Shown: piece by piece, positions 37,612 through 53,782 of the stretch
Layout of the letters: every line of letters starts with the position of its first letter
Numbering within the stretch: position 1 is the first letter of the stretch
DNA from: Bacillales bacterium UBA6356
Lineage (GTDB): Bacteria; Bacillota_I; Bacilli_A; RFN20; CAG-826
Length of the DNA: 64,000 nucleotides
NCBI GenBank assembly: GCA_002440125.1
Contig: DJRQ01000035.1
Location: forward strand, 2,900 to 66,899
Direction: 5' to 3'
The notes under the pieces: generated by a model
What the model saw: only the letters and a program-made list of their open reading frames with translations
What the model was told of the DNA's origin: nothing
The model's database searches: none
Made by a program: the position numbers and the translations under genes

Positions 37612-38230
37612 CTAATTTCTTCCTAAGATCCTTGATGTGAACGTCAAGGACCCTCGATTCATAGCAAGCGTCGTTGCCCCATAGTTTCTTAAAGAGCTCG
37701 TCGCGCGTAATAACTTTATCTTTATTCATCGCAAAGAAAAGCAAAAGCTCGAATTCGGTGTAGGTCAAACGAACAGGCGTCTCTTTTTCGAAAAGTTCGC
37801 GCCGCGCTGGTATCAAAGTGAAATCGCCAAAATGGATGTTTTCGGAGGTTAAGATCCTTCGAGCCTTCGAGTTCACGCGGGAGATGAGTTCAAGAACGTC
37901 GAAAGGTTTGGAAATATAGTCATCCGCGCCAAGTTCGAGGCCTTCGATTTTGTTTTCAAGAAGCGTCTTAGCGGAAACGATGAGAATCTGAAGAGAATCA
38001 TCATGATATTCCTCGCGGATCTTCCGAAGGACGTCTTCCCCTTTCATTTCCGGGAGCATGAGATCCAGCAAAAGGATATTCGGCTTCTTTTTCTGATAGT
38101 CTTCCAAAAAGGAAGTGGGCCTATCAAAGGTCCGAATCTCATATCCCTGGCTTTTTAAGGCCAAATTCATCAAACGGGAAATATCGGCATCGTCTTCGAG
38201 TATGTCGATAAGCAGCTCTTTTTTTTCCAT
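37550..38230 (-). CDS. phoP: OmpR-family response regulator (PhoP/PhoB-like)
   Basis: Receiver domain with DLMLP and K residues. The C-terminal winged helix ends in TVYGVGYRW. Confidence 0.85.
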   Translation of the reverse strand: MEKKELLIDILEDDADISRLMNLALKSQGYEIRTFDRPTSFLEDYQKKKPNILLLDLMLPEMKGEDVLRKIREEYHDDSLQILIVSAKTLLENKIEGLELGADDYISKPFDVLELISRVNSKARRILTSENIHFGDFTLIPARRELFEKETPVRLTYTEFELLLFFAMNKDKVITRDELFKKLWGNDACYESRVLDVHIKDLRKKLGDKDGKIIETVYGVGYRWNG

Positions 38231-38232
38231 AA

Positions 38233-38859
38233 CTAAATTATCATCCTATTTTTATAAAGGCCGGAAGCGATGTAAATAGCCCATTCGGCAATATTGGTAC
38301 TATGGTCGGCCACCCTTTCGGCGTATTTGGCCAACAATATGCTATAGACGTTTTCCACATCGTTGTTCCCTTTATCGGGGCTTAGCGCGATGTCCTCGAC
38401 GATTTTGGCGTAGAGCTTATCCACCTCATCGTCACGTTCGATAATCTCTTGCGATTTCTTTTCGTCGAGATTCAAAAAAGCATCGAAAGAGTCCTCCACC
38501 ATGCGTAGGCTCTTCTCGAGAATGCTCTTCAAAAGAGGGTTCACTTTGAAATGGGATCCTTTTTTGAGGTTGGAGACGCACCAAAGCACGTCTTCGGCGT
38601 GGTCGCCGATCCTCTCGAAATCGGAAACGGCTTTGAAAATGCCGGTTATTTCTCTTAAATCCTTGGCAAAAGGCCGCTCTTTCAAAATGAGTTTCAAGCA
38701 ATCTTCTTCGATGAGGCATTCGAAGTTATCGATCGTTTCGTCGTTGACCGTCTCTTCTTTGTTCTCCATCGAATAGGACTCATAAGCCTTTTGGAGAGAG
38801 GAAAGGGTGAATTCGCACATCTTCCTCACACTCGTCTCAAGCGGTTTTAAATCGAGCAT
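38233..38859 (-). CDS. phoU: Phosphate signalling complex protein PhoU
   Basis: 208 aa. Two PhoU repeats, each with E..D...DHAE/RVADH motifs. Confidence 0.85.
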   Translation of the reverse strand: MLDLKPLETSVRKMCEFTLSSLQKAYESYSMENKEETVNDETIDNFECLIEEDCLKLILKERPFAKDLREITGIFKAVSDFERIGDHAEDVLWCVSNLKKGSHFKVNPLLKSILEKSLRMVEDSFDAFLNLDEKKSQEIIERDDEVDKLYAKIVEDIALSPDKGNNDVENVYSILLAKYAERVADHSTNIAEWAIYIASGLYKNRMII

Positions 38860-39762
38860 TTAACCAAACCTCCCTGTGATATAATCCTCGCTTCTCTTAT
38901 CGCGCGGACGCGAGAAGAATTCTTCCGTCTTATTCATTTCGACTAAATCCCCAAGCATGAAGAAGGCCGTGTAATCGCTGATTCTAGAAGCTTGTTGCAT
39001 ATTGTGAGTCACAATCACGATCGTATACTGCTTTTGAAGTTCTCGAATGAGCTCCTCGATGCGAAGGGTTGCGATTGGGTCCAAGGCGCTTGTCGGCTCA
39101 TCCATCAAAAGGACTTCCGGTTTCATGGCCAAGGCTCTCGCGATGCAAAGCCGCTGTTGCTGGCCCCCGCTTAAGGCTAATGCGCTCCCATTTAGGCGGT
39201 CTTTCACTTCCTCGTATAAGGCTGCCCCTTTCAAAGAATCCACCACGATATCCGTGAGCGCTTTCTTGTCTTTGATGCCTTGGCAACGGGGCCCATAGCA
39301 CACATTATCGAAAATGGACATCGGAAAGGGATTCGGCTGCTGGAAGACCATTCCTATTTTAGTCCTTAAAGAAATGGTGTCGATAGCATGAATTTCCTTT
39401 TCGCGATAGAGGATTTCCCCCTTTATGATCGTTCCATCGATTAAGTCATTCATGCGATTGAGGCAACGGAGCAAGGTGCTTTTGCCGCATCCTGAAGGCC
39501 CGATGAGGGCTAAAACCCTCTTCTCATAGACATCCAGATTGATGTTTTTAAGCGAGTGCTTCTTCCCGTTTTGGTACCAAAGATTGAGGTTCTTCACCTC
39601 GATGATCTTCTTTTCCTTATTAGCGAAAGAGGGATCCGGTCTTTGGAAAAGGGGGTTTACCTCAGGCAAAGACTTAAAGGGGTTTTCGACCGTTTCCTCG
39701 CTAAGAGGTTCATTTTCCTTAGATCTAAACAATTTGTTTTTTATTTTTTCCAGTATTTTCAT
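38860..39762 (-). CDS. pstB: Phosphate ABC transporter ATP-binding protein
   Basis: Walker [10 protein letters not shown], the LSGGQQQR signature, Walker [12 protein letters not shown] and an H-loop. An N-terminal extension of about 40 aa is present. Confidence 0.9.
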
Positions 39763-41039
39763 GTTCTTTTTCCTTTCTTCTTTTCAAGGAAATAGGAGAT
39801 AAGCTTAACGCCGATATTAAGAGCCAAGACCGTCAAAAGAATGATAATGGCAATAGCGGAAGCTTGGTCGTATGCGGGGCTTTCGCCACTAAGGACATTC
39901 CAAATATGGACGGCAAGGGAACTATAGCCGCTTTGGAAGGAGACCGTTTCGCCAATGGTAGCACCCATAGCGAAAACAAGAGCGGCGCTTTCGCCGACGA
40001 TTCTTCCGATCGAGAGCAAGGTGCTCGTCAAAATCCCTCCTAAAGCGTTCGGCAGCACGATTTTGAAAATCGTCTCCGTCTTGCTCGCTCCAAGAGCCAA
40101 GCTCGCATCCATATAGTGGCGTGGGACGGCTCGAATAGCTTCTTCGGTCGTCTTGATGACGACTGGCAAAAGCATAATCGTAAGCGTCAAAGCCCCACTT
40201 AATAAATTGCCGCCGCTTCCGCCAACGATCGAGCTCGCAAATGGCACAAAAATCAAGGCCCCAGCCAAGCCGAAAATAATGGAAGGGATGCCACTAGTCA
40301 AATCGATAAGACTCCGAATGAGAAGCGTTATCCGCCCGCCTTTGGCGTAAAGGGACAAATAAATGGCAGCCCCAACGCCAAGAGGCAAAAGGAAAAGCAA
40401 GGTCAATCCGATAAGCGCCAAAGTCGTCAGAAGAGAGCCTCTTATGCCACCCCCGAACGTCACAAACGTCATGTCATAGATGGCACTGGCCTTGTCTAAG
40501 GCTTCGGCAAAAGCCTCCGGCGAGCTGCTTCCATAAACCGTTTCGTATTTCCCCTCCTCGTCTTTGATGATAAGAGAATCAAGCGAGGCTTTGGAAAGGG
40601 GGTATTCGAAGGAATTTCCGCTCACATCCAAAAAATCGAAAAACGGCGATCCTTCTTCCAAGGAAACAAGATAGACCACTTCTTTCCCATTTAGATTCTT
40701 GGTGAGGCCAAAAGAAGCGCCAAACCTCTTGGAAAAAGGGTATTTTTCAAGCCCTTCCTTTTGCGTAAACGGCTTCCCATCGTGATAATTTTCGATTCGA
40801 AAGGAATCGCTCGTCTTATAGCTAAGGGTCTTCGAATGGTAGTCGCCACTTAGGAAATCCCACGAGAGATAAGAGGAACCTCTCATAAAGACAAAAGCGA
40901 GAATCCAAACGAGAATCCCAACGCTCAATAATCCGAAAAGCCAATTCGCAAAAGTCCTAAAGCCATCATGGATTTTTCTTTTTTTAGACACCCCATCGAA
41001 GGAAAGGGGCGCCATCTCTTTTGTCGATTTCTCCATCAT
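39759..41039 (-). CDS. pstA: Phosphate ABC transporter permease PstA (extended N-terminal/periplasmic region)
   Basis: C-terminal permease core with the EAA-like loop. At 426 aa it is longer than typical PstA (about 290 aa). Confidence 0.85.
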
Positions 41040-41995
41040 CCCCCCCTCCTTTTCCGTTCCCTTCTCCTCTTAAAGGAATTAAGAGAGAGGGTGATAGCCA
41101 AAATAAGAAGAATCAGAACCAAACCCAGGGAGAAACGTATGTCATACCCCAAAGAATCGACGACCGCTTCACTCATACCGCCAAGCATCGCGCTCGTCAA
41201 GGTATTCCCCGGGTTAAAAGGATTATAAAAGAAAAGCCCATTCGAACTTCCGCCGATAACCATGGAAACGGCGGTCGCTTCGCCTAAAGCTCGGCCAATC
41301 CCCAAAATAATCCCAGCGAAAATGCCACTTTCGGCGCTCGGAAGGACGACTTTGTAATTCGTTTCTTCTTTGGAAGCTCCTAAAGCGAGGGAAGCGTCTA
41401 TCAAAGACGGATCCACATCCGTTATCGCGTTGTAGCTTAAAAGGCCGATGGTCGGAATGGACATAAGAGCCAATACCAAACTCGCCGAGAGTATGCTTTG
41501 GCCACCGCTTGTGAGCGACCCGATGATGGGCAAGCCGCGAATAAGAGGACAAAGCACAGCCATGCCGAAAAGCCCGTAAATGACGCTTGGTATGGAACTA
41601 AGGATTTCTAAGGCCGTTTGAAAAACCACCCGAATCCTTTTCGGGGCTACCCTCGCGATAAATAGAGCGCCTAAAACGGCAATAGGCGCCGCAAAAAGAA
41701 GCGATAAGGCCGTTACATAAATCGTCGTAAGCAAGAGAAAAGGCATGCCGCCTTCGCCATTGTAGGTCCAATTATAGGAAGTGAAGAAAGCGGATATATC
41801 TTGCTTTTCGCCTCGATAATAACCACCAACGAAAGGCTTAATGCCTCGCACGAAAATAAAGCCGACGATAAAAAAAACAGACAAGGAGCAAAGTAACGCA
41901 AAAAGAAGGAAGAAGCCCCCACTCCCCTTATCGAGAGCTTCTTTCCTTTTAGCGATTTTCGTTTCCTTGTCCAAATGCGATTGGCAAGAAACCAT
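41036..41995 (-). CDS. pstC: Phosphate ABC transporter permease PstC
   Basis: 319 aa, six TM helices, and the ABC permease EAA motif region ([21 protein letters not shown]). Confidence 0.85.
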   Translation of the reverse strand: MVSCQSHLDKETKIAKRKEALDKGSGGFFLLFALLCSLSVFFIVGFIFVRGIKPFVGGYYRGEKQDISAFFTSYNWTYNGEGGMPFLLLTTIYVTALSLLFAAPIAVLGALFIARVAPKRIRVVFQTALEILSSIPSVIYGLFGMAVLCPLIRGLPIIGSLTSGGQSILSASLVLALMSIPTIGLLSYNAITDVDPSLIDASLALGASKEETNYKVVLPSAESGIFAGIILGIGRALGEATAVSMVIGGSSNGLFFYNPFNPGNTLTSAMLGGMSEAVVDSLGYDIRFSLGLVLILLILAITLSLNSFKRRRERKRRGG

Positions 41996-42954
41996 TAGAT
42001 CTGTTCCTTTGCTTCTTTCCAGGTCTTGATTTCGCCTAGATAAATCTTCTTCAAGACAGTACCCGTGATATTCGTAACGGCGGTATTTTCGCTATTGACG
42101 ATAGGAACGACCGCGTCTTTTGCGAAAGCGCCACGCTTATTGTTATCATTGAGTTTCTCAAGCTCGGAATCTTGGATTTCGCGGGATAAGAAACCAATGT
42201 CATAAAGGGTGCCAGAGGTTGCGGTAACACCGCTTACGGCCGCGCCGCTTGATTGTTGATTAAGCTTGAAGGTGACTTTGTTCTTGGTAAGCTCCGTGAA
42301 TTTGCTCGAAGTCTTCTCAAGAACGGCCTTGACACTTGTAGAACCACAGGTTTCGATCTCCACATTATTCGTATCGATTCCTTGATAATTTTTTGCAAGT
42401 TCGCTCCAAGGGGTTAAGTCAGATCTATCTTCCAAGATACCACCCGCGTTTTTGATCGCGGTTTGTCCTTCAACGCTATTAAGCAAGAAATCCACATAAG
42501 CGTGGGTCGCAATCGACTTCGCGCTCGCTTGGTCCGAGTAATCGCGAATGACGAAATTAAAGTTACGACTGATCTTATAGGTGCCATTAACGACGCTCTC
42601 AACGCTCGCTTCGACGCCTTCGTAGCTCAATCCTTTGATGCCAGAGACGGAGGATAAGCTATCCAAAGAGCAATAGCCGATGCCATAAGGCTCGACGCTA
42701 ATCGCATGCATCATATCGGGATTCGTAGCGCTTGTGGAAACGACAACGTTCGAATTCCATTTGTCTTCTTTGGCCACATCCTTATAGCCGATGCTTTCAA
42801 AGAAGCATTCGCGAGTGCCGCTTCCAGCCGCTCTCGAGAAGAGCTTAATGGAGGAAGCCTCATCAAAGGAGGTTCCGCTTTCGCCACAAGAGGCGAGGGC
42901 TCCAACGCCTGCTAGAGCCATAAGAGCAATACATGCTCCGATTCTTTTTTTCAT
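41995..42954 (-). CDS. pstS: Phosphate ABC transporter substrate-binding lipoprotein PstS
   Basis: The start is trimmed to MKKRIGACIALMALAGVGALASCGES, which carries a lipobox LASC. PBP type-2 fold. Confidence 0.85.
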   Translation of the reverse strand: MKKRIGACIALMALAGVGALASCGESGTSFDEASSIKLFSRAAGSGTRECFFESIGYKDVAKEDKWNSNVVVSTSATNPDMMHAISVEPYGIGYCSLDSLSSVSGIKGLSYEGVEASVESVVNGTYKISRNFNFVIRDYSDQASAKSIATHAYVDFLLNSVEGQTAIKNAGGILEDRSDLTPWSELAKNYQGIDTNNVEIETCGSTSVKAVLEKTSSKFTELTKNKVTFKLNQQSSGAAVSGVTATSGTLYDIGFLSREIQDSELEKLNDNNKRGAFAKDAVVPIVNSENTAVTNITGTVLKKIYLGEIKTWKEAKEQI

Positions 42955-42989
42955 CTTTTTCCTTCTTTCATTTTCAACAGCGATATCTT

Positions 42990-43025
42990 CTTCCAAAAAG
43001 AAAACCGCCCCAACCAAGAGGCGGT
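42990..43025 (-). terminator. Rho-independent terminator closing the SipW-cognate operon (stem accgcc/ggcggt)
   Basis: Stem 43004-43009 paired with 43020-43025, loop ccaaccaaga. Followed on the minus strand by TTTTCTTTTTGG. Confidence 0.5.
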
Positions 43026-43052: not shown

Positions 43053-45302
43053 CTAGGAGACGGGCTTTCTTAAGAACAAGACCATGTTTTTCGATATTTT
43101 AGAACCGATTTTGAATTCCAATTCGGTTTGATGCTCGTAGAATTTCCTGCCACCCTCATAATTGAGGTAGTCCTCCACGGTCCATTTTTTCCCACTGCCG
43201 TCATAGTTATCAGGGGTGATGGGAAGATCTTTGGCGAAGGAGGCGCCCGATTCCACTTCGATAGAGCCTATAAGTCCTGTTTTCATGAATTCAGCATCGA
43301 CATCGATAAACCCTTCGGAATCGCGGACGATATTCGTTTTATTGACAATCCCCCCATCATAAACATAAACGCGGACGGATTCCGAATCGTGCGGCGCCAA
43401 AGCGATCCCGACCTTTGAAATGCGCAAGCTACCATCATCTTCGTAAACGTAAAAAGCGCGAACGAGAATATTGTAATAGTTCATCGAATTTTCGGTGATC
43501 CGAAAGAGGTTTTTCAAGTACCCTTTGGATTGATTGAAATCGTGGTTTTGGAAGAGGGGCGCATTTTCGATGTTTTGAAAATCGGTTTGAGCGCCGCCCA
43601 CTTCAAAAATCTTCGTTTCCGCGCCTTCGTTGGTATCGGATGCGAAAAATTCATAGTAAGAACTCGGATATTTTTCAAGGCGATCTTGCGAATGAGCATC
43701 CGCCTCAGCGGCGCTAACGGAAGTCAAACGCTCGTTTTCATCGAGAATATAAGCATTCGAAGCAATGGTGAACATATTGCTGTAATAAGAATATTGCTTG
43801 CCGTTATATTTAAACGTATTCATTGTCCTGGTCTTCATTCCATCGATGCGGACATTGTTGATTTCGAAATCGACATAGGGGTTTATAACGCCATCCGCGC
43901 TATAAGTTCCATTACCATATTTATAAAGAGAGGAGCCATTCTCGTAATCAAAGGAAACGTTTTTCCCAACGATTCGGAAATCGTCTATCTTCTCTATTTT
44001 GACATAAAGCTTTAAGCGAACATTCCCTACGTCCCTATACGCATAATTCGCATCGTTCAAAAGAGGGTCTTGGCAAAGAAGGAAGGGCCTTTTCGGTTTG
44101 GTGAGGTCGGTAAAGGCAGATGGCTTATTCGTCGAGACGTTGACGCTTGTCGGATAGCCAACATAAACCAAGATATTGTAGATCCCTTCTCCTAGGATAT
44201 TGGCGGATTTCCCAGCCTCGCTCCCAGCGAACAAAGCCTCATAGCTCGGGTGATAAAGGCCATTAGAGTCCTTCTCTAAGGACAAAGAAGATTGGGTCAA
44301 AGAATAATTCGCAGTCGTTTGATAGTTATACCATCCCCCAATCCATGTTCCAGGATTATAGGAAGTATAGCCGTTCGAAGAGAAACCAATAGGCGTGAAA
44401 TCCAGATAATAAATGGAATCCTTTTTAACGACCAGGTTGTTGTAATAGTAATAGGATTGGCTGTAGTTTCCTTCCGAGGCGTCTTGGGAAAAGTAATATT
44501 CTTCTTGGAAGATATAGTCGTTATTGAGTTCCGGGAATATCTCAGCCGTATCGCCATGAAGTCGAACGACGGGCTGTTGGGAAGTGGAATTATAGTTCTT
44601 CCCCGAAGTATAGATGGGATAGATGAATACCGTCTTTTTATTATAGGAAGAACCATCGATGCTGAACTCGCTATCGCTCGATAAAGCGGTCTCATCGACG
44701 TTGCTTAAAGGATCGAGAGCGCTGAGATAATGGAAGTTCCCCTGATTCATGAAACCGAGCTCGCTTACGTTTTCGACATCCGCGCTCCAACCGCAGAAAG
44801 AAAGACGGTAGCCTTTGGAGTCCTTGGCCCCGCATGAGGGCGAACCGATCTTTTCGAAGTCGTTTTGGGTGATGGAAGTATCGGCGACGAAATGCTTATA
44901 GGCGTACTTGGAATCATCTGCCGCATCCGTCCAAGCGCCGAAAAAAGAAGCGTCAGAGCTCGAAACGTTCGTACTTGAGGAGAAAGCGCTCTTCTTTTCG
45001 TCAAAGGCGCTTGCGGCATCGAATTTATCAAGATAGGAAGTATCGATGTTAAGGCCATTAGCGATGCCTTCTAAAATATAATCGGCATACATCCAGTTCG
45101 GGAAAACGTAAACGTCGTAGGTGTTGGCGTCGAGTTCGTAATTAGGGCGCACATCATCGATATAGGTATCGGGAATTATTTCCTTCTTCGTGCCTATAAC
45201 CTCTCCTAGAACCCACGTCGAAAAGGCGCTTCCGAGCATGAATCCCGGCAAAATCGCCAAGGCGAGAAGGGCGATCTTTTTGAATAATTTGGATTTCTTC
45301 AT
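43053..45302 (-). CDS. Large (749 aa) secreted Tyr/Asn/Ser-rich protein with SipW-cognate-type signal peptide; candidate fibre-associated adhesin
   Basis: N-terminus MKKSKLFKKIALLALAILPGFMLGSAFSTWVLGE, with K-rich, hydrophobic and G-S-A-F-S-T-W segments. The motif is shared with the two upstream genes and resembles the TasA/CalY leaders. The remainder is beta-rich low-complexity sequence with many N-x-S/T sites and no TM helix or LPxTG. Confidence 0.55.
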   Translation of the reverse strand: MKKSKLFKKIALLALAILPGFMLGSAFSTWVLGEVIGTKKEIIPDTYIDDVRPNYELDANTYDVYVFPNWMYADYILEGIANGLNIDTSYLDKFDAASAFDEKKSAFSSSTNVSSSDASFFGAWTDAADDSKYAYKHFVADTSITQNDFEKIGSPSCGAKDSKGYRLSFCGWSADVENVSELGFMNQGNFHYLSALDPLSNVDETALSSDSEFSIDGSSYNKKTVFIYPIYTSGKNYNSTSQQPVVRLHGDTAEIFPELNNDYIFQEEYYFSQDASEGNYSQSYYYYNNLVVKKDSIYYLDFTPIGFSSNGYTSYNPGTWIGGWYNYQTTANYSLTQSSLSLEKDSNGLYHPSYEALFAGSEAGKSANILGEGIYNILVYVGYPTSVNVSTNKPSAFTDLTKPKRPFLLCQDPLLNDANYAYRDVGNVRLKLYVKIEKIDDFRIVGKNVSFDYENGSSLYKYGNGTYSADGVINPYVDFEINNVRIDGMKTRTMNTFKYNGKQYSYYSNMFTIASNAYILDENERLTSVSAAEADAHSQDRLEKYPSSYYEFFASDTNEGAETKIFEVGGAQTDFQNIENAPLFQNHDFNQSKGYLKNLFRITENSMNYYNILVRAFYVYEDDGSLRISKVGIALAPHDSESVRVYVYDGGIVNKTNIVRDSEGFIDVDAEFMKTGLIGSIEVESGASFAKDLPITPDNYDGSGKKWTVEDYLNYEGGRKFYEHQTELEFKIGSKISKNMVLFLRKPVS

Positions 45303-45313
45303 CCTCTGCCCTC

Positions 45314-45943
45314 CTATTCCTTATGGGTTGCGACCACTTCGAAGTTAAAGCGAATCAAGGAGTTCGCTTTCTTTTCGTTCCAGACGATTTCTCTTAGCTT
45401 TTGATAGCTTTCTTTGGTGTCCGGTTCCATGCCACTCCGGTAGCCTAAAGAGATGGAAACGCTACTCGAAATCGGGCTTTCGAAATCGGAAAGAGATATG
45501 TTTTCCGAATCGCCATACCAAAGACCTTCTAGCGATTTCTCCAAGGAGGGGTCTGGCAAATAAAACTGAAAATAGGAAGAGAATTCGTCGCTAAGTTCGA
45601 TTTTATACTTGAAGGTATAGGTAAAATCCCCGAATGAGAGGCTAGTATCGTCTTGGAAAGACCATTGGTAGGTGAAATTAATGGGCGAAGGAAATTCAAT
45701 GCCATTCTGATCGACGATCAACTTCGGAAGCGTTCCATCGGGCGCATAAAGGGTATCGTTCTGGGAGCCAAAGGAGACATGAAGCGTCCCGAAGTTTTCT
45801 GGCACCTTTTTGGTTATTTCCAAGTCCGCTTGATCCTCTTTCCTAACAAGGGCATCAAAGACAAAAACGGAAAAGCCGCCCCCCACAATGGCGGCGCTAA
45901 GAAAAAGAGGAAGGGCTATCGCGAAAACCCTTTTAAGCCTCAT
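45314..45943 (-). CDS. SipW-cognate secreted protein (209 aa), candidate minor/accessory fibre component (TapA-like role by position)
   Basis: N-terminus MRLKRVFAIALPLFLSAAIVGGGFSVFVFD. Overlaps the peptidase gene by 11 nt. Confidence 0.5.
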   Translation of the reverse strand: MRLKRVFAIALPLFLSAAIVGGGFSVFVFDALVRKEDQADLEITKKVPENFGTLHVSFGSQNDTLYAPDGTLPKLIVDQNGIEFPSPINFTYQWSFQDDTSLSFGDFTYTFKYKIELSDEFSSYFQFYLPDPSLEKSLEGLWYGDSENISLSDFESPISSSVSISLGYRSGMEPDTKESYQKLREIVWNEKKANSLIRFNFEVVATHKE

Positions 45944-47480
45944 AGTGCTTCTCCCCTTTCTGCTCTCCGTTATAGCGGATTGAAATCTTCGAGTATTCCG
46001 TCGGGTTGTAATCGATGTTTATGGCTTTTTTGAAATGGAAGGTCAAGAAATATTCGCCTGCCTCCAAGGCTTCGAAGGATGAGGCTTTGGACAAAAAATA
46101 GACAAGGTTTCCGCTCTCTTCCAAAAGCGAGGCTTTCGCGTCCAAAACGGAAATCGTTTCTTTTTCCTTCGAATCGAAAGAAATGAAGGAGCGATACCCT
46201 TTCTTTTCGAAAGGCGAAGCGCCTTTCTCGTCCAAAAGCCCGAAGCTTCCTTTTTCCAAATGCCCATAGAACCCATAAAGAAAGCCCTCGGCCTCGTTTT
46301 GAGAAAGAAGCTTTAACGCCGCTTTTCTTTCGCCTTGTTTCAAATAAAGGTCGGCTTTCTCTTTTTTACTCACGAAATACACTCGCTTCGTGACTGGCTT
46401 AAGATCCTTCTTAGAAGGAAGGACTTCTTTCGTTACGCCTTCCATTTCGATGGAAGAGCTCCTCTTTTCCCTCGCATTTTCGGCTTCTCCCTTTCCTTCC
46501 GAAATGGCAGAATACGCTTCTTCCTTCGCTTTTTCTTCCTTTAAGCGAGACGCAAGAAGAGAGGATTCATTTCCTTGCTCTTTGACTTCATTCCCCTCTT
46601 TATCTACGCCGATAAGGCCATAAAGAATGGCTTCATAGCGGATTTCGTATTGGTCAGCGCTCTTCGTATAGAGAACGCTATAGACGATAAGGAGCATAAA
46701 GGCCGTCAACAAAGTGATAATGCCGATACCGCTTTGCAAATAGATGATAAACATCCCCAAGGTGAGGTTCTTATACCCAGTCCACTCCCCGACTATCTGA
46801 TCGTAAGCAATGGCGATTTCCCCCGCCATCGAGGTAGGGTTCGCATCGCCTCGAAAAGTATAGGCCTTCTGGCCGTCTTTCTCGGTGATATCGAGCAAAC
46901 GGTGAACGATCGTTATCGTCTTGCCTTCTTCTTTGCTATCCATCTTGAAGGCATAGACCTTATAGGGAACAAGTTCCTCTTCGCTTCGAACCTTTTTCAA
47001 AGTGACAAAGCCATAGCGTTCAATGCGGTTCTCATTCCCTAAAAGGTCATGTTCGGAAAGCTCGTTCCTATTTGAACGATGGATTTCAGACATCGATTCG
47101 GTATGAATGACAAGCATCGCCGTATCGCCCATAAAGAGCTGACCGCCCGCTTGTTGTTCCACCATGGCCAAAGCGACAAGCCCCAGCAAAAGAACGTAAA
47201 AAGCGATAAGAAAACCGCTAAGGACGTTAGAAGCTTTCTTTTCGCTCTTTTTCTTCTTGTTGATTCCTAAAGCGATGGAGCGAGGTTCGCCATATTTCTT
47301 TTGAAGGCGTCTGAGATCCTTTTTGACCGTTACTTCGATTTTAGGATCTTCCACTTTCGCTAGATATAAGCGCTTCTTGCTATGGAAATATAAGGCGGAG
47401 ATACCAATGAAAGCGACAGCGAAAAGAACAACTACAACCATGCAGACGATGTAGATGAGATTCATGCTATTCGTTGTCAT
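45933..47480 (-). CDS. ER/archaeal-type signal peptidase I (S26B; SipW-like), enlarged 515-aa form with extra TM segments and ~240-aa C-terminal extracytoplasmic extension
   Basis: The catalytic core sits between TM helices. S26 motifs TESMSEI (Ser box), TIVHRL (His in place of the P-type Lys, the ER/SipW type) and FRGDANPTS (GDNN-like Asp box) are present. AAGGAGGGG RBS. Confidence 0.6.
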   Translation of the reverse strand: MTTNSMNLIYIVCMVVVVLFAVAFIGISALYFHSKKRLYLAKVEDPKIEVTVKKDLRRLQKKYGEPRSIALGINKKKKSEKKASNVLSGFLIAFYVLLLGLVALAMVEQQAGGQLFMGDTAMLVIHTESMSEIHRSNRNELSEHDLLGNENRIERYGFVTLKKVRSEEELVPYKVYAFKMDSKEEGKTITIVHRLLDITEKDGQKAYTFRGDANPTSMAGEIAIAYDQIVGEWTGYKNLTLGMFIIYLQSGIGIITLLTAFMLLIVYSVLYTKSADQYEIRYEAILYGLIGVDKEGNEVKEQGNESSLLASRLKEEKAKEEAYSAISEGKGEAENAREKRSSSIEMEGVTKEVLPSKKDLKPVTKRVYFVSKKEKADLYLKQGERKAALKLLSQNEAEGFLYGFYGHLEKGSFGLLDEKGASPFEKKGYRSFISFDSKEKETISVLDAKASLLEESGNLVYFLSKASSFEALEAGEYFLTFHFKKAINIDYNPTEYSKISIRYNGEQKGEKHYEA

Positions 47481-47509
47481 ACTATCCCCTCCTTATAAGC
47501 CAACAAAGG

Positions 47510-47530
47510 CTTGGGGGAGGTGCCCCCAAG
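47510..47530 (-). promoter_or_regulatory. Intra-operon hairpin between the 225-aa subunit gene and the peptidase gene (possible partial terminator/RNA-stability element)
   Basis: 8-bp perfect stem cttggggg/cccccaag with loop aggtg. Only a weak T-run follows on the minus strand. Confidence 0.3.
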
Positions 47531-47555
47531 CGCAAAATACATTAAAAAGAATGAA

Positions 47556-48233
47556 TTAGGCCTTGACCAAAGTTGCTTCGCTTACAATGGAGACTTGTTG
47601 ATCTTTTACGGCTTCCTTTAAAGCAACGTATCCGGTTTCATTCTTCGGCTCTTTGCCGCTTTGGTAGTCGAAATAGAAGAAAGCACTTTCATCCTTATAA
47701 GATGTCGGAAGCTTAATAGAGGTCGCGTTTTCGCCCCAGGTATAGACATAACCAACGTAATTTTCGGAAGTAAACGACTTAGCGCTGGCGCTTCCGGTAG
47801 AGACGGCATATGTTTCGAAGGTGTAGCTATCCGCACCCTGAACCGAAATATATTCGCTCACCGCTTTCGGGACAAAGATATAGGTTTTGATGGAGGTCTT
47901 CACCTTCCCATCGACCTTATCGGAATTCGAACTGTTATAGGCAATCGTTCCTTTCCAACTCTCTCCTTCGCCTTCCATATAAATGCCGCCAGCCTCTAAG
48001 CCAGTTCCTAGACCATTTCCATTCGCAGTACGCCCTTCGGAAGTTTGATCCAAGATTATCTTCGAGGAAGCATCTTGTGTAAAAGTGCCGATTTTGACAA
48101 GCTGAGTCACGTTGATGCTCGCATTGCTTTCTTCTTGAGCTTTATCGCCGAAATACCAAACGGAGAAACCCGAACCAACAACGGCAATCGCAGCCGCCGC
48201 TGGAAGGGCAAATCCCACTAAAAATTTTTTCAT
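47556..48233 (-). CDS. SipW-cognate secreted protein (225 aa), TasA/camelysin-like candidate major fibre subunit
   Basis: N-terminus MKKFLVGFALPAAAAIAVVGSGFSVWYFGDKAQEE, compared with TasA ...ALVGGGTWAAFNDIKS. The mature part is Thr/Ser/Tyr/Val-rich and beta-type. First gene of the operon, directly after the AT-rich promoter region. Confidence 0.55.
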   Translation of the reverse strand: MKKFLVGFALPAAAAIAVVGSGFSVWYFGDKAQEESNASINVTQLVKIGTFTQDASSKIILDQTSEGRTANGNGLGTGLEAGGIYMEGEGESWKGTIAYNSSNSDKVDGKVKTSIKTYIFVPKAVSEYISVQGADSYTFETYAVSTGSASAKSFTSENYVGYVYTWGENATSIKLPTSYKDESAFFYFDYQSGKEPKNETGYVALKEAVKDQQVSIVSEATLVKA

Positions 48234-48965
48234 ATCCTTTTCCTCCTAATTCTTAGCGAGCAAAAATATAAGGTCTTTTTTTCGAATTTCAAGGAATATA
48301 CATTCGTCAATCTATTTCGTTTTCCTTCGAAATAAATAAAAGGAAACAGAAAATGTATGTGCTCTATAGAAAAATTTATTTTCTTGAAAATGTAACGATT
48401 TAATGCGTTCAAAACAAGATATTCAATGAAAATATTAATTTTTTCTTAAACGTTTAAGTTTTTATCATTTTAAGTCCGATATTTACTGAATTTTCTTCGT
48501 TCCTACCATTTTTAATTCTTCTTTGAAAGCGGTTTCATTTCCAAAATTCATCTACTTGAAGAATTCGAGTTCTTATGGGCTTTTTATTCATATTGTTATC
48601 ATTTATTGAATATCAGACAATAAAACATCTTAATTATCTTAACATTTTTCTTCAAAAAGCTTTTTAGGATGCGATTTTTCTTAAAAAACACTCGCAAAAA
48701 AAACAGCCCTCGATTTCTATATGTCAAAATACAATTGTTTCCTTATTTATTTAGATAAATAACTAATTTTGTATTTCACATTGTTGCTATAGTCGATGTG
48801 TCCGAATGGAACATATGTATTTTTTACCATTTTTTCTTGATGGCAAAAAGACAAAGTCTTCTATTTTTCAAATCAAGCAGATCGATGAAGAAAAGTCCGA
48901 ACTCTCTTCCCTCCTTCAGCTAGACCATCCAATTTAACTTTGGCGAATGGATAAAAAGTTTTAAT
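48234..48965. promoter_or_regulatory. ~730-bp strongly AT-rich non-coding region; divergent promoter/regulatory region for the SipW-cognate operon (-) and TetR gene (+)
   Basis: No credible ORF. The 60-aa track ORF at 48230-48412 is low-complexity. Many A/T tracts and TATAAT/TTGACA-like hexamers are present. GC is visibly far below the flanking genes. Confidence 0.45.
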
Positions 48966-48986
48966 ATGTATGCGGGAAGGGAATAT

Positions 48987-49568
48987 ATGGCTTATAGAAA
49001 ACTTTCGAACATTCGGGAATCCATTCTCGAGAAAGTCACCGAACTCGGGGCGAAGGAAGGCATTTCGTCGATTACCGCCCGAAAAGTCGCTTCTTTAGCG
49101 GATATCAGCACCCATACCATCTACACCAATTTCCTCTCGATGGACGATCTTATCAATGAAGCGGCCCTCCGTTACGAAAAGAAGGAGCTCAATGTCCTAA
49201 TTTCTTGCTTGAAAGAAAACATTTCGAAGGAAGAGGCCTTTTTAAAGACGCTTCAATCCCTTATGGAAGAGAAAAATGGCACTCTCTTTTATAGCGACTA
49301 TCGCTCGAGCAAGCTTCGGGAGTATTACGACCGTCAAAAGGCGAAAACTCAGAAATATATCGAATATTCCAAAATGCTTTTCGGAGATTACAAATCGGTA
49401 AGCGACAAGATTTATCTTTTCCTATGGAATCATGCGATTATGTGCTTATTCGTCTATTCAAGCGCCCTCATAAAAGGGAAGATCAACGATACTTTGGAGG
49501 CACGAAAAACCATTATCGAGATCATCTTTAATGGCACGACACACATTCTTCCGAAGAAAAAGCGATAG
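48987..49568 (+). CDS. TetR/AcrR-family transcriptional regulator
   Basis: N-terminal HTH ILEKVTELGAKEGISSITARKVASLADISTHTIYTNF. The start is trimmed to ATG 48987, which has a GGGAAGGG RBS. Confidence 0.8.
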   Translation: MAYRKLSNIRESILEKVTELGAKEGISSITARKVASLADISTHTIYTNFLSMDDLINEAALRYEKKELNVLISCLKENISKEEAFLKTLQSLMEEKNGTLFYSDYRSSKLREYYDRQKAKTQKYIEYSKMLFGDYKSVSDKIYLFLWNHAIMCLFVYSSALIKGKINDTLEARKTIIEIIFNGTTHILPKKKR

Positions 49569-49622: not shown

Positions 49623-49698
49623 TGGTGGCCCAGGGGGGAATCGAACCCCCGACACAAGGATTTTCAGTCCTTTGCTCTACCGACTGAGCTACCGGGCC
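49623..49698 (-). tRNA. tRNA-Phe (anticodon GAA), CCA encoded
   Basis: Manual fold: acceptor GGCCCGG/CTGGGCC, D-arm GCTCAGTCGGTAGAGC, anticodon stem-loop AAGGA-CUGAAAA-UCCUU, T-arm GGGGG-TTCGATT-CCCCC. Confidence 0.9.
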
Positions 49699-49701
49699 GC
49701 C

Positions 49702-49778
49702 TGGCGGATCATACGAGATTCGAACTCGTGATCTCCTCCGTGACAGGGAGGCATGTTGGACCGCTACACCAATGATCC
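49702..49778 (-). tRNA. tRNA-Asp (anticodon GUC), CCA encoded
   Basis: Manual fold: acceptor GGATCAT/ATGATCC, anticodon stem-loop CCTCC-CUGUCAC-GGAGG, T-arm ACGAG-TTCGAAT-CTCGT, discriminator G. It lies 3 nt upstream of tRNA-Phe. Confidence 0.9.
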
Positions 49779-49927: not shown

Positions 49928-50467
49928 CTAATAATTCTTTGCGCGAAGTTCGAAAAAGGCTTTCGGATGTCCGCAAACCGGGCAAACCTCAGGAGCGAAT
50001 TTCCCCACCACGATGTGACCGCAATTGCGGCATTTCCAGACCGCCACGTCTTTGGAGACGAAGACCACGCCTTCTTTGACATTGGCAAGAAGTTTCTTGT
50101 AGCGTTCTTCATGCTCCTTCTCGATGGCACCAACCATCTTGAACTTATTGGCGATTTCGATAAAGCCTTCTTCGCGAGCGACTTTCTCGAATTCCTTATA
50201 CATATCGGTCCATTCGTAGTTCTCGCCAGCCGCCGCCGCCTCAAGATTCTCGGCGGTTGTTGGAACATCGCCGCCATTAAGGTATTTGAACCAAAGCTTG
50301 GCGTGTTCCTTTTCGTTATCGGCCGTCTCTAAGAAGATGGCGGCTATTTGCTCATACCCTTCTTTCTTGGCTTTCGAGGCGAAGAAAGTGTATTTATTGC
50401 GAGCTTGGCTTTCACCCGCGAAAGCGGTCATTAGATTTTTTTCGGTTTGAGATCCTTTGAATTCCAT
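49928..50467 (-). CDS. rbr: Rubrerythrin (ferritin-like diiron domain + C-terminal rubredoxin-like CxxC...CxxC)
   Basis: 179 aa. E..H diiron ligands across the four-helix bundle, and a C-terminal CRNCGH...CPVCGH. Confidence 0.9.
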
Positions 50468-50527
50468 GTTTTGTTTCTCCTTATGCCTCCATTATAGTTC
50501 TTAAGTTTCACTTTGCGAGCGAAACGC

Positions 50528-51328
50528 TTAAGAGTCTTTTTTGCGCGGGAGATAGCGGATGGTTTCGTAATTGTCCAAAGAACTACTCACTTCCACCATA
50601 TAGGTATAAACTTGTTCCCTTAAAAGTTTCGTCCTTTCGCCTAGAGGCTTGCTCATATCCGGCTCGAAAACGCCACTCACATGCATTACGACGCGAGGAG
50701 AGAGAAAACGAAGGATCTTCCTTTTCTCGTAAGTCACGCATGTGGCAACAACTGGCCTTCCCAAAGAAGCTGGATAGGTGAAGGATTTTTCCGAAAAAGG
50801 GCGGATGCGCGTGCAATAAGGCCAAATATGGGCTTCTGGGAAAATAAGAATGGCATTGCCGTGCTTGATATGCGCCTCCACCGCGTCAAGGAAGGATTTC
50901 GTTTGCTCGCTATAGCTAGGCAAAGGAAGCGCTCCAATCATCGTTTCGATGGGGCGAAGGGCGGATTTGGAGACGGCTTCATTAGAGCAAAGCACGAATG
51001 TTCTCCTTGGTGGGATAAGCCAAACGGGCGCAAAGAAAGCATCCCCGATAGAAGTATGGTTTCCATAGACGAAGAAACCCTTCCTCCCCAATCTTGCCTT
51101 CCGGAATTTTCTTTTCCCCCGAATCTTAAAGCCATAGACGAGCTTGCCGACAACCCAAAAAACGGGGATAGCGATGATGTAATAGAGAATCCCGCTAAAA
51201 AGCCAATAGAACGGCGATTTGTGATAGAACTTGAAGTTTTTCGGAAGGGGCTTATGCTTAAAGCTCTTCGTGCCGGCGAAGTCGTCTTTCAAGGGGTCGT
51301 CATAATAGACAATCTTTTTTTCTTTCAT
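50528..51328 (-). CDS. Lysophospholipid/glycerolipid acyltransferase (PlsC/LPLAT family)
   Basis: N-terminal TM helix, the HxxxxD motif (NHTSIGD) and an EGTR-like block (FPEAHIW). Overlaps the GT4 gene by 4 nt. Confidence 0.6.
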   Translation of the reverse strand: MKEKKIVYYDDPLKDDFAGTKSFKHKPLPKNFKFYHKSPFYWLFSGILYYIIAIPVFWVVGKLVYGFKIRGKRKFRKARLGRKGFFVYGNHTSIGDAFFAPVWLIPPRRTFVLCSNEAVSKSALRPIETMIGALPLPSYSEQTKSFLDAVEAHIKHGNAILIFPEAHIWPYCTRIRPFSEKSFTYPASLGRPVVATCVTYEKRKILRFLSPRVVMHVSGVFEPDMSKPLGERTKLLREQVYTYMVEVSSSLDNYETIRYLPRKKDS

Positions 51329-52476
51329 GCTTTTTTGTCTTTTTTCAGTTTGGCCGTCTCATGAACCATTTCGACCATTTTCTCCATGCAGGTGTCGAAA
51401 TCGAATTGGCCAACGTAAGTTTTATAGAGCTCTTGGTTCTTTTTCCTTTCCAAAGGATGCTCTATCCAATAATCGATTCGACTGGCAAGATCCTTAAAGG
51501 AATCCTCTTTGAAAAGGTTCTTATCCGTCAAAGCGAAGGTCTTGGTGGCGCTAAGAGGCGAATCATTGATAAGCGGGGTAAGTCCCGAGGCGATGGCTTC
51601 AAGGCAAGAAATCGCTTCGATCTCCACGCGTGAGGCATGGACATATAAATCGGCCATCGATAGGAGTTCGATGAGCTCAGGATGCGAATAGAACTTAAAC
51701 AAAGGATGAAGACCGCGTTTTTTGGCTTCTTTTTGGAGTTCTTCCAAACGAGGGCCGCTGCCAGCTAAAACAAGTTGGATATCATCCTTGTGCTTCGAGC
51801 AAGCGACAGCCTTGATGAGAAGCTTCTGATTCTTCTCTTTGCTATAGCGGCCCGTCATCACGATGACGAATTTATTCTCCCATTCGGGAAGGCGCTTCAC
51901 GTCAAGCTTTTTGAAATCGCGGGAGACGCCGTTAGAGATAACAACGCCCGGCGTTTTTTTGCCAATGGCCTTCTCAAAGACCCCTTCGATAAAGGAAGTC
52001 GGATAGTGAATGGTGTCGACGTATTGATAGAAATGCTTCCACATCCATTTATAGACGCCGCGATTCACTCTTGTGCTTCGGATGAGATTAAAGAAATGGG
52101 CGGTGACGTTTTCTGCCTGGACATGGAATCCGGCACTTACCGGAATCCCCATTTCATGGGCCATTTTAACCGTTTTCAAGCCAGCTGGAAAAGGCATCAT
52201 GATATGGACTTCATCCGTGCCTTTAAGCGCTTCTATCAAGGTACTCGCTTTCGGCTTGGCCAAACCGACCCCATTATGGTCGACGATGGGTTGAAATATG
52301 CCAAAGTTGTAACGGGGGAGAACATAGAAAAAATCTTCGCCCTCTCGCTCCGCGTCAGGACAAACAACCCGAACTTCGTCGCCCGCTTTTTTTAAAGCCT
52401 CTATTAAATGAAGAGCCGCGATGGTCGTGCCATTGTTCGGTTTCCCCAAGACATCGCAAATTACAGTAACTATCAT
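51325..52476 (-). CDS. GT4-family glycosyltransferase, diacylglycerol glycosyltransferase (MGS)-like
   Basis: GT-B fold with the E-x7-E motif (RVEIEAISCLEAIASG). Its N-terminal half resembles 1,2-diacylglycerol 3-glucosyltransferases. Confidence 0.75.
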   Translation of the reverse strand: MIVTVICDVLGKPNNGTTIAALHLIEALKKAGDEVRVVCPDAEREGEDFFYVLPRYNFGIFQPIVDHNGVGLAKPKASTLIEALKGTDEVHIMMPFPAGLKTVKMAHEMGIPVSAGFHVQAENVTAHFFNLIRSTRVNRGVYKWMWKHFYQYVDTIHYPTSFIEGVFEKAIGKKTPGVVISNGVSRDFKKLDVKRLPEWENKFVIVMTGRYSKEKNQKLLIKAVACSKHKDDIQLVLAGSGPRLEELQKEAKKRGLHPLFKFYSHPELIELLSMADLYVHASRVEIEAISCLEAIASGLTPLINDSPLSATKTFALTDKNLFKEDSFKDLASRIDYWIEHPLERKKNQELYKTYVGQFDFDTCMEKMVEMVHETAKLKKDKKA

Positions 52477-53707: not shown

Positions 53708-53782
53708 TGGTTGCGGGGAATGGACTTGAACCATCAGCCTTCAGGTTATGGGCCTGACGAGCTACCATTGCTCTACCCCGCG
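53708..53782 (-). tRNA. Initiator-type tRNA-Met (anticodon CAU) with C1-A72 mismatch and A11:U24; anticodon stem has A29:U41 and loop has C33
   Basis: Manual fold: 5' CGCGGGG ... CCCCGCA-A-CCA 3' (position 1 C opposite 72 A), D-stem GAGC/GCTC (A11:U24), anticodon stem UCAGG/CCUGA, loop CCCAUAA, T-arm GAUGG-UUCAAGU-CCAUU. Confidence 0.75.

Follow-up and report, generated by a model that had tools for sequence, protein, structure and literature searches.

Within the window (the whole 64-kb stretch of DNA analyzed here) lies a compact group of four minus-strand genes, A to D, encoding a signal peptidase (B) and three proteins with a common N-terminal leader (A, C, and D; Table 1). A and B are separated by 75 nt, B and C overlap by 11 nt, and 11 nt lie between C and D. 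A sequence-only reading of the same DNA had described tight packing between an AT-rich leader and a terminator, and all three were recovered, the flanks as the spacer and the hairpin with T-run 3′ of D listed in Table 1.

Table 1. Features of the operon and its surroundings. Positions refer to the window unless given as residues of B.
Feature	Position	Strand	Description
Gene A	47556-48233	-	225-aa ORF; proposed major subunit
Gene B	45933-47480	-	515-aa ORF; divergent S26B (SipW/SEC11-type) signal peptidase
Gene C	45314-45943	-	209-aa ORF; paralog of A; proposed minor subunit
Gene D	43053-45302	-	749-aa ORF; large, beta-rich; proposed tip, anchor, or adhesin component
AT-rich spacer upstream of operon	48234-48965	none	732 bp, GC 0.28; between operon and divergent TetR-family gene
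Sigma-70-like promoter match	48265-48292	-	TTGAAA-16-TATATT; 10/12; ~30 nt upstream of A start codon
GC-rich hairpin in A-B gap	47509-47531	-	9-bp stem, 7 GC pairs
Intrinsic terminator	42995-43025	-	hairpin ACCGCC…GGCGGT, then TTTCTTTTT (43025-43004); 28 nt past D stop codon
TetR-family regulator gene	48966-49568	+	divergent, upstream of operon; TetR_N match
Leader of A	48144-48233	-	MKKFLVGFALPAAAAIAVV-GSGFSVWYFGD
Ser129 codon of B	47094-47096	-	catalytic box
His193 codon of B	46902-46904	-	catalytic box
Asp212 codon of B	46845-46847	-	catalytic box
TM1 of B (predicted)	residues 9-27		hydropathy
Basic cytoplasmic loop of B (predicted)	residues 34-86		18 K/R
TM2 of B (predicted)	residues 89-107		hydropathy
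External catalytic domain of B (predicted)	residues 110-238		hydropathy and positive-inside
TM3 of B (predicted)	residues 252-270		hydropathy
Cytoplasmic tail of B (predicted)	residues 270-515		~245 residues

A survey of the neighborhood in relatives, as proposed in that reading, showed the whole cassette to be conserved: it was found in at least five divergent lineages of uncultured gut Bacilli, among them Candidatus Enteromonas (order RFN20, family CAG-826), and the genes stay in the order A-B-C-D even among lineages whose A proteins are only 20–40% identical. The genomes of the host lineage are reduced (PMC10868615), and Candidatus Enteromonas/CAG-826 relatives are predicted to have no peptidoglycan. 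Some members of RFN20 and its relatives are predicted to lack a cell wall.

The operon promoter likely lies within the spacer upstream of A; in all related loci examined, this position is likewise occupied by an AT-rich region (263–1142 bp, GC 0.22–0.41). The sigma-70-like match in the spacer is a consensus match only, such matches being no commoner in this region than in shuffled sequence. A strong Shine-Dalgarno sequence (AGGAGGAAAAGGAT) precedes the ATG of gene A. The divergent gene beyond the spacer encodes a possible local regulator of the operon, with a TetR_N match (E 5e-5, 23.4 bits) slightly below the 24-bit cutoff. It is kept in the near-identical locus L006 and does not adjoin the cassette in the related loci L001, L003, L015, and L018. 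Thus, the earlier statement that no SinR-type repressor is in view holds for the SinR type, but it passes over this candidate.

The GC-rich hairpin in the A-B gap is a candidate partial terminator or mRNA stabilizer, which would raise the ratio of A to the accessory proteins. Strong hairpins of unrelated sequence are also found in the A-B gaps of L003, L007/L008, and L015, the last one being a canonical terminator, while none was detected in those of L001 and L018. The occurrence of a hairpin after gene A in several lineages fits A as a major subunit made in excess.

The signal peptidase B

Sequence comparison places B among the ER/archaeal-type (S26B) signal peptidases, as a divergent member that has a Ser-His(-Asp) active site and predicted cleavage activity. 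Its boxes T-x-S129-M (including S129-M130), V-H193-R, and G-D212-A-N do not vary among 15 family members and align with SGSMEP, THR, and GDNN of Bacillus subtilis SipW; the His/Asp stretch also aligns with IVHR...GDNN of human SEC11A/C. The Ser, VHR, and GDAN boxes reported previously were therefore confirmed, as was His instead of Lys as the general base, with no Ser-Lys dyad. In the hhalign comparison of the B family with authentic B. subtilis SipW (96.5%, E 7e-10), the Ser, His, and Asp residues as well as the C-terminal TM regions are in register. The B-family profile matches human SEC11C (4e-5) and SEC11A (3e-4) and no LepB-type enzyme. Matches to the SipW model NF046067 were obtained for 14 of the 15 members (best 1.1e-12), and to the archaeal signal-peptidase model TIGR02228 for 13 (best 8.9e-9). 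The B protein of the window scores 33.7 bits (E 2.5e-8) against a curated cutoff of 190 for the former and 27.1 bits (E 3.2e-6) against 51.85 for the latter. By these scores, B is homologous to the SipW/archaeal type, below the curated cutoffs, and not an equivalog. Its earlier placement as “exactly” SipW class is thus supported for the ER/archaeal SipW class and the Ser-His(-Asp) site, although its scores fall short of the cutoffs of both SipW-type models.

From hydropathy and charge distribution, the catalytic domain of B is predicted to face outward, flanked by membrane helices. B exceeds the 190-aa SipW by an additional N-terminal TM helix with a basic loop, by 19 residues inserted after the Ser box, and by a long tail of ~245 residues in the cytoplasm. 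Likewise, it shares the active site and a directly aligning VHR…GDxN stretch with SEC11A/C and the TIGR02228 archaeal enzymes, but, unlike them, it is bacterial and stands alone, with three TM helices and large extensions into the cytoplasm.

No LepB-type peptidase gene was found within the 64-kb window, which, like the reduced genomes of the host lineage, would suit B as the general housekeeping signal peptidase. A, C, and D would then be ordinary Sec-exported, non-polymerizing surface or secreted proteins, for instance adhesins or binding proteins, that are merely co-transcribed with it. We consider this rather unlikely, partly because B is so highly derived, with its extra TM helix, insert, and tail, unlike a generalist enzyme, and partly because of the leaders described below.

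The leader shared by A, C, and D

A, C, and D start with a common leader, MKK–hydrophobic–[VI]-G-S-G-F-S-x-W-x-F-x-[DEN], which includes …AAIV-GGGFSVFVFD in C and …GFML-GSAFSTWVLGE in D. The three N-terminal blocks are exactly as first quoted, and the pattern G-[SGA]-[GA]-F-[SA]-[VT]-[WF] has only three matches in a six-frame translation of the window, all at the N-termini of these proteins, versus 0.013 expected from composition. Across 155 homologs the A leader is near-invariant, with G, S, G, F, S, W, and F reaching 3.4–4.2 bits in the sequence logo, and information content drops to ~1 bit just past it. Codon differences in the A leader between the window and related loci are mostly synonymous (9–14, versus 3–5 non-synonymous), indicating constraint at the protein level. 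All three non-peptidase proteins of L001, L003, L015, and L018 carry the leader, and the search pattern is matched by both A and D of each complete cassette examined. The C leaders of L007 (VVGGGFSVWYF) and L008 (IIGSGFSVWYF) were recognized by eye in the translations, and the fourth gene of L022 has a variant, GVGVSYWVF. This common, dedicated leader makes A, C, and D the obvious candidates for cognate substrates of B.

Export through a general peptidase would be compatible with the normal n-h-c layout of the leaders and with small residues at plausible −3 and −1 positions. However, seven leader positions are near-invariant over hundreds of divergent proteins, whereas the sequence of ordinary signal peptides is not conserved. 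Moreover, the motif is confined, within the 64 kb, to the three cassette proteins, and the gene order has outlasted the divergence of A, both of which argue against that reading.

The proposal that the leader is a SipW-cognate signal was not supported. With the corresponding model TIGR04088 (SipW-dependent-type signal peptide; cutoff 19 bits), a TasA positive control scores 38 bits, yet the three N-termini give no match at E≤10, nor do any of 123 A-family members at E≤0.1.

Alternatively, the N-terminal segment might be an uncleaved signal anchor, with G-S-G-F-S-x-W-x-F as an interfacial helix-helix or protein-contact motif in a membrane-bound surface complex. B could then serve as a scaffold in assembly, which would suit a potentially wall-less cell. 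Consistent with this, the entire hydrophobic helix of A, including a Pro at −9 and an Ala run, is near-invariant beyond the cleavage region. The motif contains W and F, aromatics that are typical of the membrane interface, and the predicted absence of peptidoglycan in CAG-826 relatives would leave a released fiber nothing to attach to. Nevertheless, an uncleaved anchor appears quite improbable to us: the catalytic residues of B are all strictly conserved, which is hard to explain without proteolysis. Moreover, in both C and D the hydrophobic helix varies in sequence, whereas the motif at its C-terminal end stays conserved, the pattern expected for a protease recognition site.

Like type IV pilin-like proteins and lipoproteins, A, C, and D begin with a short basic stretch ahead of a hydrophobic helix, but there is virtually no chance that they belong to either group, which the sequences contradict. 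Class III (type IV pilin) signals have a G-F/M-x-x-x-E motif, cleaved after the Gly, before the hydrophobic helix, whereas the conserved Gly motif follows the helix here; the cassettes contain no prepilin peptidase, ATPase, or platform gene; and neither a lipobox in A, C, and D nor any cysteine in A and C was found. A C-terminal LPXTG and a second membrane helix are likewise absent from all three proteins, giving no sign of other anchoring routes. Loose LPXTG-like matches (LPAAA inside the A leader and SPISS in C) are not C-terminal sorting signals.

The exported proteins and known systems

A consists of the leader, a flexible N-terminal extension of ~20 residues, and a beta-sandwich domain; in its AF2 model (pLDDT 75.5, pTM 0.73), residues 1–42 are disordered and not packed against the confident sandwich. 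Based on sequence, A and C are paralogs: their families (394 representatives for A) align over 194 columns in hhalign (probability 99.5%, E 9e-23), and BLASTP aligns the two proteins in two colinear segments. D shares the leader with them and nothing else; the A-like domain is absent, and its predicted structure is too poor for an adhesin assignment. A, C, and D have no match in Pfam, NCBIfam, or PDB, and none of the three families has been described previously.

The locus had been taken as TasA-like, yet A, C, and D match none of the TasA/Peptidase_M73 profiles (PF12389, NF046066, TIGR04089/04090). That A and C truly belong to the TasA/camelysin (Peptidase_M73) superfamily, as very remote members with a diverged TIGR04088 signal as leader, seems unlikely. 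The hhalign comparison of the A family with TasA gives a weak match (19.5%, E 0.0012) that aligns the leader only, and TasA ranks 30th of 1,988 against shuffled controls. Among 123 A-family members, Peptidase_M73 finds at best one, at E=0.015, and TIGR04088-04090 or TasA models find none. No PDB sequence matches the A-family profile, and all structure matches of A fall into the beta-sandwich noise zone, with no fiber-subunit, jellyroll, or TasA (PDB 5OF1) fold recognized; the absence of a recognized fiber-subunit fold would also fit non-polymerizing proteins exported by a housekeeping B. The locus also differs from those of chaperone-usher pilins (CsuA/B, FimG, CupE): scores are in the noise range, no chaperone or usher is present, and the host is single-membrane.

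The best reading is that the locus is analogous to B. subtilis tapA-sipW-tasA and closest in composition to the Clostridium perfringens operon sipW-bsaA-bsaB-bsaC. As in tapA-sipW-tasA, a dedicated ER-type signal peptidase gene lies between substrate genes, and the leader common to the substrates has a Gly-rich block and then aromatic-x-D. In contrast to B. subtilis, there are three proposed substrates instead of two, the leader does not score with TIGR04088, no jellyroll or TasA match was detected, and a TetR-family gene is found in place of sinR or sinI.

The gene composition, previously seen as non-canonical, has a precedent: in PMC11580942, which cites Obana et al. 2020, the C. perfringens operon is described with a matching parts list of a peptidase of the SipW type, a pair of paralogous small matrix or fiber subunits, and a large secreted protein (~70 kDa). 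All three non-peptidase products carry signal sequences, which the peptidase of the operon presumably cuts. The two operons differ in several respects. The genes here run in the order subunit-peptidase-subunit-large protein; unlike A and C, BsaA and BsaB can be recognized as TasA relatives (TIGR04090); a vWA domain is present in BsaC, but D contains no known domain; and B, with 515 aa, has extra parts. The C. perfringens system also involves isopeptide bonding and depends on type IV pili.

Pyrobaculum AbpA/AbpB (PDB 7UEG) likewise pairs a small beta-rich subunit with a larger, multi-domain beta-rich partner, the latter proposed as filament initiator/anchor and adhesin. Only the most sensitive methods reveal the homology of AbpA to TasA (PF12389 was found by HHpred). 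Unlike the present locus, ABP loci have no dedicated peptidase.

A proposed peptidase–substrate module

On balance, we favor the view that the locus is a self-contained module, in which the dedicated ER-type peptidase B would process A, C, and D for a surface or extracellular assembly. The operon probably builds a surface fiber or adhesin complex. The three proteins would enter the Sec pathway via their family-specific leader, composed of a basic tip, a hydrophobic helix of ~16 residues with a conserved Pro, and the [VI]-G-S-G-F-S-x-W-x-F-x-[DEN] motif. Membrane-bound B, its catalytic domain facing outward, would recognize this motif and cut inside it, with candidate sites after G-S-G or after G-F-S, both of which invariably have small residues at −3 and −1. 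The mature proteins would thereby begin with an aromatic W-x-F-x-D N-terminus, carried by a flexible linker of ~15–20 residues.

In the resulting assembly, mature A would be the abundant beta-sandwich subunit and C a minor or initiating subunit, whereas D, with its leader and N-terminal strand but no A-type domain, may act as an adhesin or a terminal anchor. On the model of TasA, TapA, BsaA, and AbpA, we propose that the freed N-terminal strand inserts into the sandwich of a neighboring subunit (donor-strand exchange). The donor strand of TasA comprises residues 28–38, directly past the SipW site (PMC9674648), and the monomer model of A predicts that its conserved N-terminal extension is disordered.

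More tentatively, and with considerable doubt, the locus could represent a new class of surface filament or pilus-like adhesin in Mollicutes-related gut Bacilli (RFN20 and relatives), with a subunit fold that lacks any solved relative, its own leader class, and a co-evolved ER-type peptidase of novel architecture. Such a system would be a sister or convergent analog of TasA/SipW instead of a member. If this is true, the cytoplasmic domains of B may couple processing to assembly or signaling.

Organization and conservation of the cassette

The four minus-strand genes A to D, of which B encodes the signal peptidase and A, C, and D encode leader-bearing proteins, are separated by 75 nt between A and B, overlap by 11 nt at B/C, and are spaced by 11 nt between C and D. 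The 732-bp spacer 5′ of A has a GC content of 0.28 and contains, immediately ahead of the gene, a promoter-like TTGAAA-16-TATATT element and a strong ribosome-binding site; the related loci, too, generally have long AT-rich regions ahead of the cassette. ORF listing and inspection of the flanks, including a hairpin with a T-run 3′ of D, bore out the sequence-only reading of four tightly packed co-directional genes between an AT-rich leader and a terminator.

Coordinates of the cassette, its flanks, and features of related loci (L numbers)
Feature	Locus	Position	Strand	Remarks
Gene A	window	47556-48233	-	225 aa (ORF listing)
Gene B	window	45933-47480	-	515 aa (ORF listing)
Gene C	window	45314-45943	-	209 aa (ORF listing)
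Gene D	window	43053-45302	-	749 aa (ORF listing)
Tail of B, residues 270-515	window	45933-46670		charged, ~245 aa, conserved distal region
Hairpin ACCGCC…GGCGGT and T-run	window	43025-42995		3′ of D
GC-rich strong hairpin, A-B gap	window	47509-47531	-	between putative major-subunit gene and peptidase gene
A-B gap hairpin	L003	8736-8831		
A-B gap hairpin	L007	4083-4181		
A-B gap hairpin	L015	10724-10808		
TetR-family regulator gene	window	48966-49568	+	TetR_N E 5e-5, 23.4 bits, slightly below the 24-bit cut-off
Three tRNA genes	window	49626-49778 and 53711-53782	-	
Phosphate-uptake block	window	36244-43017	-	listed pstS start (TTG) at 43017
Shared upstream flank	window	49928-52476		
Shared upstream flank	L001	300-2848		
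Gene A of near-identical MAG	L006	1381-2064		
Five-gene cassette variant	L022	113-5914		
Leader-bearing DUF6273 fusion	L017	3770-5605		611 aa

The A-B-C-D order is kept in the near-identical MAG GCA_002440155.1 (L006), in a Candidatus Enteromonas locus (L001; 236/421/221/691 aa), in L003-L005 and L009-L010 (244/495/213/755 aa), in L007 and L008, and in the far more distantly related L015 (240/319/228/823 aa), L018 (216/338/270/766 aa), and L022. All three non-peptidase proteins of L001, L003, L015, and L018 carry the leader motif, and their B proteins the S, H, and D boxes. The C leader of L007/L008 was read from the translations and is not caught by the search pattern, and the fourth gene of L022 has a variant leader, GVGVSYWVF. 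The system is real, conserved, and uncharacterised. The genome scan for related loci returned only 7 species representatives, and the bin labels of some of these (such as Bacteroidaceae and Staphylococcaceae) are implausible. L022 has five genes, with C enlarged to 321 aa and the D-like protein apparently split, by a frameshift or genuinely, into a leader-bearing 286-aa part and a 664-aa part. In L006, the ORF of gene A is intact but missing among the called genes.

GT4 glycosyltransferase, acyltransferase, and rubrerythrin genes flank the cassette upstream both in the window and in the Enteromonas locus, a synteny that speaks for vertical inheritance on the chromosome; the two A proteins are nevertheless only ~37% identical. 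A phage or defence origin was rejected, as none of the four operon proteins matched a phage or defence family in PHROGs or PADLOC. The A-B gap contains strong hairpins in the window, L003, L007/L008, and L015, which are unrelated in sequence and in L015 form a canonical terminator, and no such hairpin was found in L001 and L018. Their presence in several lineages would fit a higher expression of A than of B, C, and D.

The TetR-family gene lies on the other side of the AT-rich spacer and is divergent from the operon; the near-identical MAG keeps it, and in more distant loci it does not adjoin the cassette. Two of the three neighboring tRNA genes lie in tandem between the TetR-family and rubrerythrin genes. 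Directly downstream of the operon is a complete phosphate-uptake block (pstS, pstC, pstA, pstB, phoU, and a two-component response regulator and histidine kinase). As listed, the start of pstS overlaps the operon terminator, and the true start is probably ~21 codons further in, because the L006 homologue is called at 319 aa.

A shared leader on proteins A, C, and D

The pattern G-[SGA]-[GA]-F-[SA]-[VT]-[WF] occurs three times in the six frames of the window, each time at the N-terminus of A, C, or D (0.013 occurrences expected), confirming the N-terminal block previously noticed in these proteins. A profile search with A in 1.84 billion representatives returned 394 matches at E≤1e-3 and 136 at E≤1e-10, the ~394 family members being cluster representatives at 50% identity; most of the best 150 matches listed are full-length proteins of ~200-280 aa. 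None of the 52 close homologues is named. The N-terminal consensus of the family is M-K-K-x-x-L-x-x-x-x-L-P-x-x-A-A-x-A-V-[VI]-G-S-G-F-S-x-W-x-F-x-[DNE], with 3.4-4.2 bits at the motif positions and ~1 bit right after the motif. Since the leader codons of the window and related loci differ by more synonymous (9-14) than non-synonymous changes (3-5), the constraint acts on the protein.

Proteins A and C are paralogues (hhalign 99.5%, E 9e-23, 194 columns), and D has the leader alone in common with the A family (37 columns, 95%). Scans of A, C, and D against Pfam, NCBIfam, PHROGs, and PADLOC gave no matches, nor did searches of PDB sequences with the single A sequence or the A- and D-family profiles. 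The three proteins show no second membrane helix beyond the N-terminal hydrophobic segment, no lipobox, and no C-terminal sorting signal; cysteine is absent from A and C. Lipoprotein and sortase-substrate readings were rejected on these grounds, and a type IV pilin is likewise excluded by sequence. The leaders could also be uncleaved anchors organising a membrane-bound complex, a reading we consider unlikely. In all three families, motif positions 0 and 2 (G/S, G/A) as well as 2 and 4 (G/A, S/A) fit the small-residue −3/−1 rule.

The sequence-only reading had assigned the leaders to the SipW-cognate class and the proteins to a TasA- or camelysin-like system, and neither membership was recovered. 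The isolated N-termini of A, C, and D did not match TIGR04088 at E≤10, with B. subtilis TasA as positive control scoring 38 bits against the 19-bit cut-off (the control sequence is 98-99% identical to TasA of real loci). None of 123 diverse A-family members matches TIGR04088-04090, TasA, or any curated family, and only one touches Peptidase_M73 (E 0.015). HMMER and hhalign detect a weak similarity of the A family to TasA, confined to the leader, so that A and C being true remote members of the TasA superfamily appears improbable; such membership would be compatible with the mechanism proposed below.

In L017, which has no cassette close by, a protein with this leader joins an A-like domain to DUF6273, and P0192 and P0198 resemble this fusion, which suggests that some genomes may encode further motif-bearing substrates elsewhere. 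The giant protein P0158 (3366 aa) matched only a short part of the A profile, positions 152-189, and did so 26 times; low complexity or repeats, not homology, probably account for these matches.

Peptidase B

Protein B has no Pfam match and gives sub-threshold but significant matches to the SipW equivalog NF046067 (E 2.5e-8, 33.7 bits, cut-off 190) and the archaeal-type signal peptidase TIGR02228 (E 3.2e-6, 27.1 bits, cut-off 51.85); among 15 family members, 14 match the former (best 1.1e-12) and 13 the latter. By hhalign, the family aligns to SipW of an authentic B. subtilis tapA-sipW-tasA-sinR locus taken from a metagenome (96.5% probability, E 7e-10, 134 columns), with T-x-S129-M/SGSMEP, V-H193-R/THR, G-D212-A-N/GDNN, and the C-terminal membrane helices in the same register and 19 residues inserted in B after the Ser box. 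Residues S129, M130, H193, R194, G211, D212, and N214 are invariant in all 15 members. Among PDB sequences, the family profile found human SEC11C (4e-5) and SEC11A (3e-4) and no LepB-type chain, and the single B sequence had no match.

Hydropathy and charge predict three membrane segments (TM1 9-27, TM2 89-107, TM3 252-270), a basic cytoplasmic loop (34-86, 18 K/R), an external catalytic domain, and a cytoplasmic tail of ~245 residues. All relatives have TM1 and the basic loop. The tail varies and matches no family; its long form is restricted to closer relatives and missing from the distant cassettes, where B has 319-338 aa. A second, signalling role was reported for the C-terminal region of SipW (Terra et al. 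2012, as cited in PMC9674648).

On this sequence evidence, B belongs to the S26B peptidases with a Ser-His-Asp active site (SipW/SEC11 class); it is strongly derived and not an equivalog. The earlier assignment to the SipW class thus stands for the catalytic boxes and the SipW/SEC11 alignment, and does not extend to the NF046067 and TIGR02228 cut-offs. A motif search covering the 64-kb window found no LepB-type peptidase. B could instead be the housekeeping peptidase and its neighbors ordinary secreted proteins, but given the leader shared by these neighbors we regard this as unlikely.

Proposed mechanism and implications

We infer a dedicated peptidase-substrate module as the most economical reading. 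Sec would export A, C, and D, and B would cut them inside the conserved motif, so that the mature N-termini would lie at or slightly ahead of the invariant W-x-F-x-D, carried on a polar linker of variable sequence. By analogy with TasA, whose residues 28-38 directly after the SipW site form the fibre-building donor strand (PMC9674648), and with TapA and AbpB, proposed as initiators or anchors, A may polymerise as the major subunit and C act as a minor or initiating subunit. D may be a terminal anchor or adhesin, able to donate a strand and lacking an A-type acceptor domain. The cassette would work like the SipW/TasA paradigm but falls outside TIGR04088, TasA, and SipW-equivalog membership.

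Fibre subunits with cognate leaders are known together with a dedicated SipW-type peptidase from Bacillus and Clostridium, and without one from archaea. The composition of the locus, previously considered non-canonical, has a precedent: the closest known counterpart is C. perfringens sipW-bsaA-bsaB-bsaC, which combines a peptidase with two TasA-like paralogues and a vWA protein of 70 kDa (PMC11580942).

The recorded source names are “Firmicutes/Bacillota bacterium”, “Mollicutes bacterium”, “Bacillales bacterium”, and “Candidatus Enteromonas sp.”, the latter corresponding to GTDB genus UBA733 of order RFN20, family CAG-826 (PMC8035907), in which peptidoglycan is predicted to be absent (PMC10868615). 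Literature searches on SipW- or TasA-type surface structures in RF39, RFN20, or Mollicutes returned nothing relevant.

The locus carries the SipW-type principle into Bacilli that are uncultured and host-associated, have reduced genomes, and are related to mycoplasmas. Three unannotated protein families are defined by it, together with a new, sharply delimited leader class that could serve as an HMM for finding further substrates genome-wide, and the extra cytoplasmic parts mark a variant of the peptidase. The locus encodes a candidate surface structure of mycoplasma-related gut bacteria. If its products form a fibre or adhesin, they would be candidates for attaching common avian and mammalian gut commensals to host or mucus, and would provide a test of whether a cell without peptidoglycan can anchor donor-strand fibres.
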